Source: a virus (Duplodnaviria > Heunggongvirae > Uroviricota > Caudoviricetes). From it: 14,107 nucleotides of DNA. The position numbers and the translations under genes are program-made. The notes below the pieces were generated by a model, which worked only from the letters and a program-made list of their open reading frames with translations, was not told the origin of the DNA and ran no database searches. The stretch is taken from IMG/VR virus record IMGVR_UViG_2563366830_000016, one strand, 5' to 3'. This document shows positions 1,369 through 10,787 of the stretch, piece by piece. Position 1 is the first letter of the stretch. Every line of letters starts with the position of its first letter.

Positions 1369-1444
1369 GCCGATATAGCTCAGTTGGTAGAGCAGCGCAT
1401 TCGTAATGCGAAGGTCGTAGGTTCGACTCCTATTATCGGCACCA
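1369..1444 (+). tRNA. thrW: tRNA-Thr (anticodon CGU)
   Basis: 76-nt sequence GCCGATATAGCTCAGTTGGTAGAGC...GGTTCGACTCCTATTATCGGCACCA with cloverleaf-compatible arms, anticodon loop TTCGTAA (CGT) and encoded 3' CCA; recognised as enterobacterial thrW, a known integration target for P4-like and P22-like elements. Confidence 0.95.
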
Positions 1445-1609: not shown

Positions 1610-2824
1610 GTGAAACTCAATGCCCGTCAAATAGACACAGCCAAGCCAAAAGAGAAGGCTTACAAGCTGGCCGATGGTGGCGGTTTGTATCTCTTGGTAA
1701 AACCTAATGGAGGTAAATACTGGCGACTTAAATATCGTGTAGATGGTAAAGAGAAGCTATTGGCACTAGGTGTGTATCCTGAGGTTACTCTAGCCGATGC
1801 TCGGGCAAAACGTGAAGATGCGAAAAGAGGTATCGCTGGTGGTATCGATCCGATGGAAGCGAAACGAGAGGAAAAGATTGCCCGGGAAACGCAGTTAAAC
1901 AACACCTTCAAAGATATTGCCCTTGAGTGGCACAGCAGCAAATTAAAAAAATGGTCTGCTGGTTATGCTTCAGACATCCTCGAAGCCTTCAACAAAGATG
2001 TGTTCCCTTACATTGGCAAAAAACCAATCGCCGAAATCAAACCACTTGAACTTCTGAATGTGCTGCGGCGCATCGAGGGGCGCGGTGCTACAGAAAAAGC
2101 CAAAAAAGTGAGGCAGCGGTGCGGGGAAGTTTTCCGCTATGCAATAGTCACTGGTCGCGCAGAGTATAACCCTGCACCAGACCTTACTAGCGCGATGCAA
2201 GGCCATGAATCTAATCATTACCCTTTCCTTACAGCTAAAGAATTACCTGATTTTTTCAAGGCATTGTCCAGTTACTCAGGAAGCGCATTGGTTGTTATGG
2301 CGGCTCGTCTACTGATTATCACCGGCTTGCGGACTGGCGAACTACGTGGCGCATTATGGGATGAAATTGATTTCAACAAGGCTATCTGGGAGATACCCGC
2401 TTCACGTATGAAAATGCGGCGGCCTCATATTGTGCCATTGTCTGATCAGGCTCTTTCGCTTATTGGGAAGATTAGAGAAATAACAGGCAATTACCCTCTT
2501 ATGTTTCCCGGGCGCAATGATCCAAGGAAAACAATGAGTGAGGCCAGCATAAACCAAGTGTTTAAGCGCATTGGCTACGCTGGACGTGTAACTGGTCATG
2601 GGTTCCGGCACACTATGAGTACGATTTTGCATGAGCAGGGCTATAACACCGCGTGGATAGAAACGCAGCTCGCTCACGTTGATAAGAACTCAATTCGTGG
2701 CACATACAACCATGCGCAATATCTGGATGGAAGGCGGGAGATGCTTCAATGGTATGCCGACTATATGGATTCTCTCGAGCATGGCGGAAATGTGGTGCAT
2801 ATGGTGTTTGAAAAACACGCATGA
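1610..2824 (+). CDS. Tyrosine-type site-specific integrase, P4-like family (GTG start)
   Basis: 404-aa ORF; N-terminus KLADGGGLYLLVKPNGGKYWRLKYRVDGKEKLLALGVYPEVTLADARAKR is the typical P4-type integrase arm-binding domain; C-terminal HGFRHT and catalytic-Tyr region (YNHAQY) consistent with tyrosine recombinases. GTG at 1610 is the only in-frame start; GGAGG lies 9 nt upstream. Adjacent to the tRNA. Confidence 0.9.
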   Translation: MKLNARQIDTAKPKEKAYKLADGGGLYLLVKPNGGKYWRLKYRVDGKEKLLALGVYPEVTLADARAKREDAKRGIAGGIDPMEAKREEKIARETQLNNTFKDIALEWHSSKLKKWSAGYASDILEAFNKDVFPYIGKKPIAEIKPLELLNVLRRIEGRGATEKAKKVRQRCGEVFRYAIVTGRAEYNPAPDLTSAMQGHESNHYPFLTAKELPDFFKALSSYSGSALVVMAARLLIITGLRTGELRGALWDEIDFNKAIWEIPASRMKMRRPHIVPLSDQALSLIGKIREITGNYPLMFPGRNDPRKTMSEASINQVFKRIGYAGRVTGHGFRHTMSTILHEQGYNTAWIETQLAHVDKNSIRGTYNHAQYLDGRREMLQWYADYMDSLEHGGNVVHMVFEKHA

Positions 2825-2967
2825 AACAACTGGACAAGTATACAGAGGTTTACTAAAGTATAGGGGAGTAGATTGATAAAAACTCACAGAGGATTGCTAT
2901 TTAACAGTTAGCCCTGGAGAAGGGCAATCGCTCTTTTATAAACGAAGGTGTATTGAGCCTTCTACGT

Positions 2968-3032
2968 CGCTGACAAAGCGGAATGTTCTTTAACAGGCTT
3001 TGGCGCTGACAAAGCGCAATTGTTCTTTAAAA
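2968..3032 (+). repeat. Tandem imperfect direct repeats of about 28 bp (CGCTGACAAAGCGGAATGTTCTTTAACA / GCGCTGACAAAGCGCAATTGTTCTTTAAAA) in the int-alpA intergenic region
   Basis: Read directly at 2968-2995 and 3003-3032. Position between int and the regulator gene suggests a protein-binding or regulatory site; function unknown. Confidence 0.4.
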
Positions 3033-3131
3033 CTACTGGATGTCACGCCTAATAGCGTGATCCTGCCGAAATGCAGGGTAGCTCTACCCTTGTGGAGCGA
3101 ACAAACCAAAACAATCTGACTATCTTTTATA

Positions 3132-3166
3132 AAAGACCGCAATATGTTTTTCATATTGTGGTCTTT
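3132..3166 (+). promoter_or_regulatory. Long inverted repeat (15-bp arms, 5-nt centre): AAAGACCGCAATATG-TTTTT-CATATTGTGGTCTTT, upstream of alpA
   Basis: Read directly; one mismatch in 15 bp; no U-tract follows on either strand, so operator-like or RNA-structure rather than an intrinsic terminator. A TTGACG motif follows at 3181-3186. Confidence 0.4.
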
Positions 3167-3252
3167 GGCGTATTCGACATTTGACGCAAATAAAACTCTC
3201 GCCATTCGTTGCAGGAGGGGGTTATTGCGTCATTAGTACAGGATATTAATAA

Positions 3253-3456
3253 ATGGCTAATTACAATTCATTAATTCGTCTCTCTGAAGTTCAAAGGCGA
3301 ACTGGTTATAGCAAAGCATGGATTTATCGTCTTATTAGTCAGGGGAGGTTCCCTAAACAGGTAAAAATTGGAAGTCGGGCAATTGCTTTTGTTGAGTCTG
3401 AAATAGATGAATGGATTGAGAAGTGTATATTAGAATCTAGAGACGAGGTGGCCTGA
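3253..3456 (+). CDS. alpA: AlpA-family phage/island transcriptional regulator (small HTH protein)
   Basis: 67-aa ORF with ...GYSKAWIYRLISQGRFPKQVKIGSRAIAFVESEIDEWIE..., the characteristic AlpA (prophage CP4-57 regulatory protein) pattern; AGGA about 10 nt upstream; same orientation as int, as in P4-like and PICI-type elements. Confidence 0.85.
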   Translation: MANYNSLIRLSEVQRRTGYSKAWIYRLISQGRFPKQVKIGSRAIAFVESEIDEWIEKCILESRDEVA

Positions 3457-4908: not shown

Positions 4909-5339
4909 CCGTCCAGAAGAAGATATTTTCACTGACTGCTATGTCGCAAAAATCCAGCAATATGACAGCAAAGTCTGGCATTAATACAGCAGATACAAGC
5001 AAAGCTTATCATTTTATGGTGGTAGGAGCGGATGCCTTAACTATGTCAGAAATTACGGTCGATGGTGTTAGCGTTGAGAAGGTCAGCGGCTGCGCCAGAG
5101 AATTTCTGGTCGTAGATGACCTGTTCTGCTCGCGTAGTGACTCCACAAAAATCTTCGTCCGCACGCGCGACGTTAACGAAATGAGCGCGATGTACTGTGC
5201 CTCTGGTTCTTCCAATAGTGAGTTTTCGGAGTCCATAAAAAAGAGCTTGCCGTTATGCGGCAACACGGTTTATGGTTATAAGGCACCTCATAAAACGGGT
5301 GCCGGGATTAGGACCCCGCAGGCAATCGAGGCGATACAT

Positions 5340-5360
5340 GACGCGCCAGCGTCTTTTTTT
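5340..5360 (+). terminator. Candidate intrinsic terminator / attenuator: GACGC-gcca-GCGTC hairpin followed by T7
   Basis: Read directly: 5-bp GC-rich stem, 4-nt loop, then TTTTTTT at 5354-5360. Short stem, so moderate-to-low confidence. Lies inside the gap with no convincing gene (4909-5524). Confidence 0.35.
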
Positions 5361-5524
5361 GTATCGGCGCACACGCACACCTTATCAATGGTGGGCTGTA
5401 TGGGGCTGACTTCGGTCAGGCTGGTTTCCTTGATTGCCAGTAGTCCTAACCCTGTACAGTCCACCGCCAGCGAGCTTAGGACCTCCGGCGGTGGCTATAA
5501 ACCATCAATCAAGGAGGCTGCCAC

Positions 5525-10672: not shown

Positions 10673-10787
10673 GTGTTGGTTCAGTTGGTTTAGTTGGTTC
10701 AATTTGTAAAGAGTATTGTTTTATAAGGATTTTATTCTTTTTATTGAACCAACACTGAACCAACAACACGGTATTTTGAACCAACAC
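10673..10787. repeat. Iteron-type origin candidate: 3 direct repeats GTTGGTT(C/T)A (10673-10701), AT-rich spacer, 3 inverted copies TGAACCAAC(A)AC (10745-10787)
   Basis: Read directly. Clustered 9-11 bp repeats in opposing orientation around an AT-rich core, immediately downstream of the primase-helicase gene, is the classic arrangement of a satellite/phage replication origin. Confidence 0.65.

Follow-up and report, generated by a model that had tools for sequence, protein, structure and literature searches.

The 14,107-nucleotide (nt) stretch of DNA analysed here, referred to as the window (IMG/VR record IMGVR_UViG_2563366830_000016), contains a phage satellite of Escherichia coli in which a 428-nt spacer separates the integrase gene (int) from alpA, the gene of the island's master activator. 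As read from its sequence, this spacer appears to hold four tandem nut (N utilization) sites, each composed of a boxA and a boxB hairpin and all on the sense strand of alpA. That the elements are nut-like sites of the lambdoid type can be stated with high confidence. Their function is proposed with more reserve: the spacer is probably a transcribed leader that senses a helper phage by means of N-dependent processive antitermination.

The int-alpA spacer carries an array of nut-like sites

Which nut elements the spacer holds, in what order, on which strand and at what distances can be read directly from the DNA (Table 1). A boxA precedes a boxB on the sense strand, and the segments 2895-2906, 2984-2995 and 3021-3032 carry one, one and two mismatches, respectively, to the 12-mer that represents the NusB-NusE site (CGCUCUU(U)A or UGCUCUUUAACA-like). 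The spacing between boxA and boxB amounts to 3, 6 and 8 nt, compared to 9 nt (nutL) and 8 nt (nutR) in P22 and 7 nt (nutL) and 8 nt (nutR) in lambda. Known boxB classes consist either of a 5-bp stem with a GNRA-like pentaloop (GAAGA or GAAAA in lambda, GACAA in P22) or of a phi21-type stem with a CUAACC hexaloop. The hairpins at 2967-2981 and 3003-3017 have the P22 loop, the one at 2911-2925 belongs to the lambda class and the one at 3042-3061 comes near the phi21 type.

The similarity to phage elements is often close to identity. boxB-1 (2911-2925) agrees with the nutL boxB of lambda (GCCCTGAAGAAGGGC) at 14 of 15 positions, a single loop base being different, while boxA-1 is the best local match of the whole spacer in the genome of phage Kapi1, where it corresponds to the boxA of nutR (16/17). 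The region of boxB-2 matches nutL of mEp234 at 19 of 20 positions, including TCTACG, and this module is arranged (boxA, hairpin, TACG, boxB) like the annotated nutL of the mEp234/933W type. The hairpin at 2944-2962, whose stem reads GAAGA/TCTTC in other alleles, has the same position as the extra hairpin and TACG on the 5' side of boxB in nutL of the 933W/mEp234 type (annotated in mEp234). boxB-3 equals the annotated nutL boxB of the mEp234, HK106, 933W-type, H-19B and HK97 phages (15/15); the annotated nutL of P22 reads CGCTCTTTAAC-ttcgatgat-GCGCTGACAAAGCGC, and this 15-mer also served as the RNA of the complex with the P22 N peptide (PMC11480772). boxB-4, 8 nt on the 3' side of boxA-4, contains the TCACGC/GCGTGA dyad and has a loop (CUAAUA) that is near to, yet not identical with, the phi21-type CUAACC.

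Chance occurrence would yield far fewer of these motifs. The window contains seven boxA-like matches where 1.35 are expected, the best three all lying in the spacer on the + strand. The P22 boxB pattern is matched twice (0.07 expected) and the lambda boxB pattern once (0.01 expected), and the remaining window is nearly free of nut elements on both strands. With blastn-short, the best match of the spacer is a nut site in Kapi1, in P22, in the lambda immunity region and in the mEp234 immunity region; these nut sites are annotated in the P22, lambda and mEp234 records and were identified by eye in Kapi1. When modules 1 and 4 were searched on their own in the phage database, no significant match was returned; these two modules resemble known phage nut sites but are no copies of them. 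As a whole, the 395-nt leader folds with -126 kcal/mol (z = -5.9 relative to shuffled sequences).

Table 1. Features of the int-alpA spacer and its surroundings, by position in the window. The names boxA and boxB denote predicted nut elements; energies and z-scores refer to predicted folds.
Feature	Position	Strand	Remarks
tRNA-Thr	1369-1444		adjoins the integrase gene
Integrase gene, P4-type tyrosine recombinase	1610..2824	+	Pfam Phage_integrase, Arm-DNA-bind_3, Phage_int_M; RefSeq
Candidate sigma-70 promoter TGGACA-17-TAAAGT	2831..2859	+	promoter scan; predicted start near 2866
boxA-1 TGCTATTTAACAG	2895..2907	+	1/12 mismatch to boxA consensus TGCTCTTTAACA
boxB-1 GCCCT-GGAGA-AGGGC (GCCCTGGAGAAGGGC)	2911..2925	+	lambda type; -9.4 kcal/mol
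boxA-2 CGCTCTTTTAT	2929..2939	+	first 7 nt (CGCTCTT) equal boxA of lambda (CGCTCTTA) and P22 (CGCTCTTTA)
Hairpin GAAGG...CCTTC, then TACG	2944..2962	+	-7.5 kcal/mol, z = -3.7
boxB-2 TCGCT-GACAA-AGCGG (TCGCTGACAAAGCGG)	2967..2981	+	P22/933W type, U.G closing pair; direct repeat copy 1
boxA-3 TGTTCTTTAACAG	2984..2996	+	1/12 mismatch; 6-nt spacer to boxB-3
boxB-3 GCGCTGACAAAGCGC	3003..3017	+	identical to P22 nutL boxB; direct repeat copy 2
boxA-4 TGTTCTTTAAAAC	3021..3033	+	2/12 mismatches
boxB-4 GTCACGC-CUAAUA-GCGTGAT	3042..3061	+	phi21/Kapi1 type; 7-bp stem, 6-nt loop starting with CUAA
Hairpin CCTGC-CGAAAT-GCAGG	3062..3077	+	A-rich loop; from the fold
AGGGTAG/CTACCCT dyad	3075..3090	+	overlaps hairpin 3062-3077; not conserved
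C-rich, G-poor stretch	3095..3131	+	predicted unstructured; candidate Rho-loading (rut-like) site
Long hairpin, candidate leader terminator	3132..3166	+	-20.8 kcal/mol, z = -7.5
Hairpin GACGCAA...TTGCGTC enclosing AGGAGG	3183..3231	+	-19.7 kcal/mol, z = -3.7; 90% paired across alleles
alpA, island master activator	3253..3456	+	Pfam Phage_AlpA 7e-20; protein identical to EcCIMP1 AlpA (WP_000035054)

An earlier reading of the same DNA (the original prediction) took the spacer for the likely control region of alpA, dense in repeats and going beyond a simple promoter. Both statements agree with our results: the spacer is 99% identical to the region of island EcCIMP1 covered by a helper-inducible reporter spanning -449 to +50 (PMC11773190), and its content exceeds that of a simple promoter. 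Of the two options offered at the time, a structured RNA is to be preferred over multiple regulator binding sites on DNA, since the elements match known RNA signals, occur on the sense strand only and differ between alleles in ways that keep pairing only in + strand RNA; the repeats do not look like binding sites on DNA. That the motifs are lambdoid nut sites had gone unrecognised, and the list of features was incomplete: the array begins about 70 nt on the 5' side of the repeats listed, and the module at 2895-2939 had been missed. The dyad TCACGC (3043-3048)/GCGTGA (3055-3060) and the inverted repeat 3132-3146/3152-3166 (15-nt arms, 14 of 15 bases complementary) were found as described, and the spacer indeed lacks a LexA box (CTGT-N8-ACAG). 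The dyad AGGGTAG (3075-3081)/CTACCCT (3084-3090) exists as well, although 1-2 nt away from where it had been placed, and is not conserved in glyU-type alleles. As for the proposed 28-bp tandem direct repeats, the repeat itself is real: 2968-2984 and 3004-3020 match at 16 of 17 positions, 2984-2993 and 3021-3030 at 10 of 10. With offsets of 36 and 37 nt, they describe a unit of about 27 nt in two copies with one indel and about 9 nt between the copies. A strictly head-to-tail arrangement does not hold, however, and Tandem Repeats Finder remained silent.

Several other identities of the spacer elements were tried and rejected. An open reading frame (ORF) of 71 amino acids on the minus strand (2990-3205), with no Pfam match and no RefSeq annotation, was treated as spurious. 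A CRISPR-like or tandem array was dropped in view of the empty Tandem Repeats Finder output and a spacing that is irregular among alleles. Integrase arm sites or iterons do not apply either: the repeats lie 1.5 kb from the att core, and the probable iterons of the island are at 10675-10765. A target of the island's own C4/CI RNA is limited to an 8-nt complement (3032-3039) at chance level, the better candidate being the seqC-like complement at 5506-5515. An Ogr/delta site (P2/P4 late promoter, TGT-N12-ACA) is absent from the spacer and from the whole window. Finally, the Rfam 15 covariance models gave no match at E <= 1 within 2825-3252, their matches elsewhere being tRNA, isrK and C4.

Alleles gain and lose whole modules

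The spacer was aligned to alleles of 391 and 651 nt from other thrW islands and of 543 and 642 nt from tRNA-Gly (glyU) islands. What distinguishes the alleles of 391, 428, 543, 642 and 651 nt is the presence or absence of whole boxB/boxA modules, the varying module being a 5-bp hairpin followed by (T/C)G(C/T)TCTTTAA. Scans of IMG/VR and metagenomes returned the same five architectures and no others. Not every island has the array; EcCICFT073 is one without it. Within the modules, the stem of boxB-4 stays fully (100%) paired in the alleles in spite of three G-C/G-U changes, which would be mismatches on the other strand. The stem of the hairpin at 3062-3077, which is possibly a fifth boxB, is likewise retained in all alleles and shows one compensatory change from U-A to C-G. 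Judged from these alignments, the stem changes (G.U and compensatory) preserve pairing only in + strand RNA, which favours an element that acts at the RNA level.

In the 651-nt thrW allele (locus L003), one boxB is exactly that of lambda nutR, and a stretch of 45 nt is 93% identical to nutL of mEp234 (E = 2e-14). When positions 3150-3440 of L003 were searched against the phage collection, a single 48-nt segment was found, 92-96% identical to nutL of mEp234 and of 933W-type Stx phages. The same allele, which also occurs in locus L004, has about 220 extra nt between its nut modules (L003 3160-3400) with several clean hairpins, such as CTTTCCTG-ATG-CAGGAAAG, ATGCA-N9-TGCAT and CCGATAG-ATTT-CTATCGG. 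These extra hairpins have no match in the phage collection and are possibly recognised, in the manner of boxB, by uncharacterised N proteins. In a decayed copy of the island, found in one E. coli genome (L094, NZ_AP045810, 2501-3351), an IS1 insertion leaves just the first 138 nt of the spacer, and the part towards alpA is lost. The allele H40, an IS1-disrupted remnant, was dropped as uninformative.

Outside E. coli, 80 AlpA loci were considered, and arrays occur in three of them: Pantoea septica (L012, 2258-3000), Yokenella regensburgei (L025, 1080-1270) and Providencia alcalifaciens (L072, 2046-2700). These islands have a promoter-like site and then several boxA-like motifs paired with hairpins on the 3' side of int. 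The Yokenella array includes a GCGCT-GAAAA-AGCGC hairpin, and an extra gene of 297 amino acids lies between it and alpA; in Providencia, five boxA copies are spread over about 600 nt. From this distribution, the mechanism proposed below would be limited to a subset of islands, namely the E. coli thrW and tRNA-Gly islands and those of Pantoea (L012), Yokenella (L025) and Providencia (L072).

The helper phage Kapi1 has nut sites of a similar type

The nutL and nutR sites of Kapi1 are of the phi21 type, with a near-consensus boxA, a stem of 6-7 bp and a CUAACC loop. The segment 3018-3062, which comprises the fourth module, was aligned to every 50-nt window on both strands of the Kapi1 genome. Its score at nutR of Kapi1 is 19, the mean over the genome being 3.0 (standard deviation 1.6), and no other location equals this score. 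Kapi1 also encodes an N-like protein (Kapi1_020; phrog_271, 3.7e-32). A scan of the island ORFs gave no match to N_peptide or phrog_271; with no N-like gene found among the ORFs scanned, N would have to act in trans.

Published data on EcCIMP1 bear directly on the spacer. An alpA-lux reporter from -449 to +50, which spans the whole spacer, is switched on when Kapi1 enters the lytic cycle, whereas mitomycin C in a non-lysogen gives no induction (PMC11773190). The reporter still responds in an alpA deletion, although less strongly (PMC11773190), and alpA is known to be autoactivated by AlpA (PMC6092414, PMC11773190). This behaviour, including the response in the absence of AlpA, indicates that a phage product acts directly on the spacer region. 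Neither study names the phage inducer or a cis element (PMC6092414, PMC11773190), and the EcCIMP1 paper uses neither the stem "terminat" nor the word "inducer" (PMC11773190).

A leader that would sense helper phages by antitermination

The array is preceded by the promoter-like site at 2831-2859 and followed by the hairpin at 3132-3166, both being consensus-level predictions. Nowhere in the 5' half of the spacer are thrW and glyU alleles better conserved than in the promoter block, and homologous TGGA(C/A)A-17-TAT... sites precede the arrays of Pantoea and Yokenella. Within the promoter spacer lies a GTATAC-AGAG-GTTTAC dyad (2838-2853), which is a perfect GTATAC-N4-GTATAC in the tRNA-Gly alleles and is possibly an operator that serves autoactivation by AlpA or a repressor. 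Downstream of the nut modules, 3095-3131 is the sole part of the spacer with a negative GC skew (-0.25 to -0.375) and is unpaired in the centroid fold. The long hairpin behind it has a 15-bp stem and the tail UUUGGCGU. The original prediction had described it as lacking a U-tract. In this allele just UUU follows, but in the glyU alleles T5 follows and the scan calls a terminator; there, the hairpin differs by one compensatory pair and one change from G.U to A-U. In Pantoea, a second, canonical terminator lies between the homologous hairpin and alpA, just on the 5' side of the gene. Further downstream in our spacer, the conserved hairpin at 3183-3231 lies about 20 nt on the 5' side of the alpA ribosome-binding site, and an ATTTG-ACG-CAAAT dyad is found at 3179-3191.

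A promoter, nut sites, terminators and a gene, in this order, make up the classic layout of N antitermination, and the published reporter data fit it. We therefore propose the following course of events, in which the transcription start, the termination in the leader, the binding of N and the dependence on N are predictions from sequence. The promoter-like site would start an untranslated RNA of about 385 nt that carries the four nut sites, in each of which the boxA would serve as the NusB/NusE site and be followed by the boxB hairpin. Each boxB would represent a different N-specificity class: lambda-like, 933W/HK97-like, P22-type and phi21/Kapi1-like. Beyond the array, the RNA would run through the C-rich rut-like stretch and the strong hairpin at 3132-3166 towards alpA, and in a quiet lysogen the leader transcripts would end before reaching the gene. 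When a lambdoid helper enters the cell or is induced, N, an immediate-early protein of the helper, would bind the cognate boxB on the nascent satellite RNA and, together with the host factors NusA, NusB, NusE and NusG, would render RNA polymerase resistant to termination, allowing it to reach alpA. AlpA would then boost its own expression, and excision and replication would start. The N-modified polymerase would, we infer, probably also pass the terminator at 5340-5353 in the isrK/C4 region of P4-type immunity.

Lambdoid and P22-like phages have mosaic N/nut modules. With several boxB classes in one leader, phages with different N alleles could each induce the satellite. A broader version of the proposal, which we put forward tentatively, as somewhat short of an even chance, is that the spacer is an evolvable array of nut cassettes. 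Each module would be the receptor for the N protein of one lambdoid group, and gain, loss or swap of modules would set which phages induce; the N-modified polymerase would also cancel isrK/C4 immunity (5283-5471), and the array may drain N from the phage.

A number of observations weigh against the proposed leader. Three boxA copies deviate from the consensus at one or two positions. The promoter matches its consensus at 9 of 12 positions and has a weaker -10 element in the glyU alleles, Rho dependence is suggested only by base composition, and the terminator scan misses the long hairpin in this allele because just three U follow. The phi21 boxB fold uses UAAC and a flanking C-C pair (PMC12550061); as the loop of boxB-4 reads CUAAUA rather than CUAACC, its recognition by Kapi1 N is uncertain. 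Covariation statistics are weak, the alleles representing effectively two lineages. In 77 of the 80 AlpA loci from other species, strict nut motifs are absent on the 5' side of alpA, and they are equally absent from the int-alpA spacer of EcCICFT073 (L093, 24161-24525), the alpA gene of which is also induced by a helper (PMC6092414). Induction of EcCICFT073 without nut motifs implies a nut-independent route in related islands, which lowers the confidence that the array is the sole sensor here. The inducer could also be some other early product of Kapi1. The EcCICFT073 spacer itself has a run of GAAACAACG/GACACAACG/GAACAACAAG-type repeats directly on the 3' side of int and a CA-rich tract on the 5' side of alpA.

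Alternative explanations of the array

The alternative that survives best, though unlikely, is antitermination of the ribosomal RNA operon (rrn) type by host factors only. The boxA copies would recruit NusB/E, NusA, NusG and SuhB and shield the leader from Rho, the boxB-like hairpins would be incidental and the helper would be sensed elsewhere, for instance at the promoter. The boxA copies are indeed nearer to the rrn consensus TGCTCTTTAACA than to lambda CGCTCTTA, the order of hairpin and then boxA, when the elements are read as repeats, resembles that of rrn leaders, and EcCICFT073 senses its helper without nut sites. Nevertheless, phage boxBs of three specificity classes have exact or nearly exact counterparts among the hairpins, with 15/15 matches and the 45-nt nutL match among them. 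The rrn order of boxB, boxA and boxC is not found, a boxC-like TGTG[TG]GG motif being absent from the spacer. Moreover, a constitutive anti-Rho device leaves unexplained why the reporter is silent before helper induction (PMC11773190).

Quite unlikely, in our view, is a decoy function, in which the array mainly soaks up lambdoid N and so delays or blocks the early genes of the phage, control of alpA being a side effect or absent. An array of several specificities would suit a broad decoy, and the reported superinfection immunity is compatible with it. Leader RNA from a single-copy locus would be a weak sink for N, however. The decoy also fails to explain the placement, given that in four genera the arrays always lie between a promoter and alpA with terminator-like structures on their 3' side, as well as the induction of a reporter fused on the 3' side of the array. 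A decoy and an antitermination leader are not mutually exclusive.

It is very unlikely that the nut sites are functionless relics, i.e., pieces of pL-nutL or pR-nutR regions that entered the island together with further phage DNA. The island did capture P22-like late genes, and the 45-nt stretch of L003 is almost identical to nutL of Stx phages. Yet the matches end at the edges of the nut elements without flanking phage sequence, no phage is known to have four tandem nut sites of different classes, every copy is in sense orientation, the arrangement is found again, in other sequences, in Pantoea, Yokenella and Providencia, and the spacer is retained in 294 of the 5426 complete E. coli genomes. 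Least probable of all are DNA operators, with the repeats and dyads binding AlpA, the integrase or a helper transcription factor that activates the alpA promoter: while autoactivation means that an AlpA site must exist in the spacer (PMC6092414, PMC11773190), for which the GTATAC promoter dyad and ATTTG-ACG-CAAAT (3179-3191) are candidates, the repeats match RNA elements exactly, G-C to G-U stem changes become C.A mismatches on the other strand and so break a DNA palindrome, copy number varies from 1 to 3 among alleles with the island retained, and neither an Ogr/delta-type TGT-N12-ACA site nor a LexA box is present.

Genomic context of the island

The window is a piece of E. coli chromosome with proA, tRNA-Thr, the integrase gene, the spacer and alpA, followed by a co-oriented operon that comprises an AntA/Bro-type gene, isrK-like and C4/P4-CI-like RNAs, ash, a primase gene and P22-like head-morphogenesis and ejection genes. 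The spacer is bounded by the int stop codon (2822-2824) and the ATG of alpA (3253). The co-orientation of int and alpA, with the spacer between them, is the layout of the alpA control region of Gram-negative phage-inducible chromosomal islands (PICIs), and the island is a satellite of the EcCIMP1 type integrated at tRNA-Thr (thrW). EcCIMP1 itself, from E. coli MP1, occupies the same tRNA-Thr site, encodes an identical AlpA protein (WP_000035054) and has a spacer that is 99% identical to that of the window. Strain Ec1120 carries a 100% identical locus, the RefSeq annotation of which was used. Among the 5426 complete E. coli genomes, the 294 occurrences of the spacer are chromosomal every time.

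Three further parts of the island were noted. Two RNAs, one isrK-like (5283-5359, 63 bits) and the other C4/P4-CI-like and antisense (5384-5471, 80 bits), are enclosed by an ORF with the annotation "ash family protein"; the region also has an intrinsic terminator (5340-5353, with T7 behind it), and a 10-nt complement to the C4 loop occurs at 5506-5515, just on the 3' side of the C4 RNA (seqC-like). Together, this looks like a P4-type RNA immunity module with CI and a seqC-like target. Just past the end of the primase gene (10649), GTTGGTTCA occurs three times in tandem and TGAACCAAC(AC) twice in inverted orientation (10675-10701 and 10745-10765); these units are probably the iterons of the island's replication origin. 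The segment 11412-14107 holds virion genes of the P22/Kapi1 type within the satellite, among them a head morphogenesis gene (phrog_651, 1e-66) and one for a "phage DNA ejection protein". These captured genes agree both with a helper of the P22 type and with reports that Gram-negative PICIs acquire late genes from their helpers.

Relation to known systems and significance

The nutL and nutR sites of the lambdoid phages (lambda, P22, phi21, 933W/H-19B/HK97) are composed of the same boxA and boxB motifs, other alleles of the satellite spacer even matching the nutR boxB of lambda, and share with the satellite array the spacing, the sense orientation and, as far as predicted, the position between a promoter and a terminator-like structure. 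The lambdoid phages, however, have one nut site per operon, whereas the satellite has four in tandem, belonging to different specificity classes. They also differ in that the satellite has no recognisable N gene and would receive N in trans from another genome, and in what is controlled: the master activator in the satellite and delayed-early genes in the phages. The leaders of rrn operons likewise combine a near-consensus boxA with adjacent hairpins in an untranslated leader, but they contain a boxC, the satellite hairpins correspond to the boxBs of phages and not to that of rrn, and the satellite is silent until phage induction.

Among satellites, EcCICFT073 and EcCIMP1 are elements of the same type as the island described here, with induction of alpA in the lytic cycle, independence of SOS and autoactivation by AlpA. 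As the EcCICFT073 spacer lacks nut motifs, its way of sensing the helper is probably different. The Staphylococcus aureus pathogenicity islands, in which helper proteins inactivate the Stl repressor, and P4, which is activated by Cox or Ogr of P2, follow the same logic of remaining silent until an early helper product appears. They make use of protein-protein or protein-DNA contacts, whereas the sensor proposed here is a cis-acting RNA that captures the antiterminator of the helper. A protein of the AlpA family and leader terminators also occur together in Pseudomonas aeruginosa. There, AlpA is itself the antiterminator of alpBCDE and loads at a DNA element of the promoter; the satellite nut RNA, on the contrary, lies on the 5' side of alpA and would act before AlpA exists. 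Full-text searches, the coverage of which leaves out most subscription journals, returned no paper on nut sites in satellites or on N as an inducer of PICIs. While the parts are well known, the tandem multi-specificity array gating a master activator in a satellite without N appears to be new.

How Gram-negative PICIs detect their helpers has been an open question since 2018. The presence of a nut array in exactly the helper-responsive region makes the question of helper sensing reducible to a direct test. In the broader version of the proposal, if true, a single helper protein would both switch on alpA and cancel the immunity of the satellite. The missing inducer would then be identified for one class of Gram-negative PICIs, and the array would be the first described cis-RNA helper sensor of a phage satellite. 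If the proposed mechanism is true, the satellite would hijack the very first protein made by a lambdoid phage. The range of helpers could then be read from the boxB classes in the sequence, and variation in module number would record the co-evolution of satellites and helpers. The arrays would also provide natural, multi-specific N-responsive switches for engineering.

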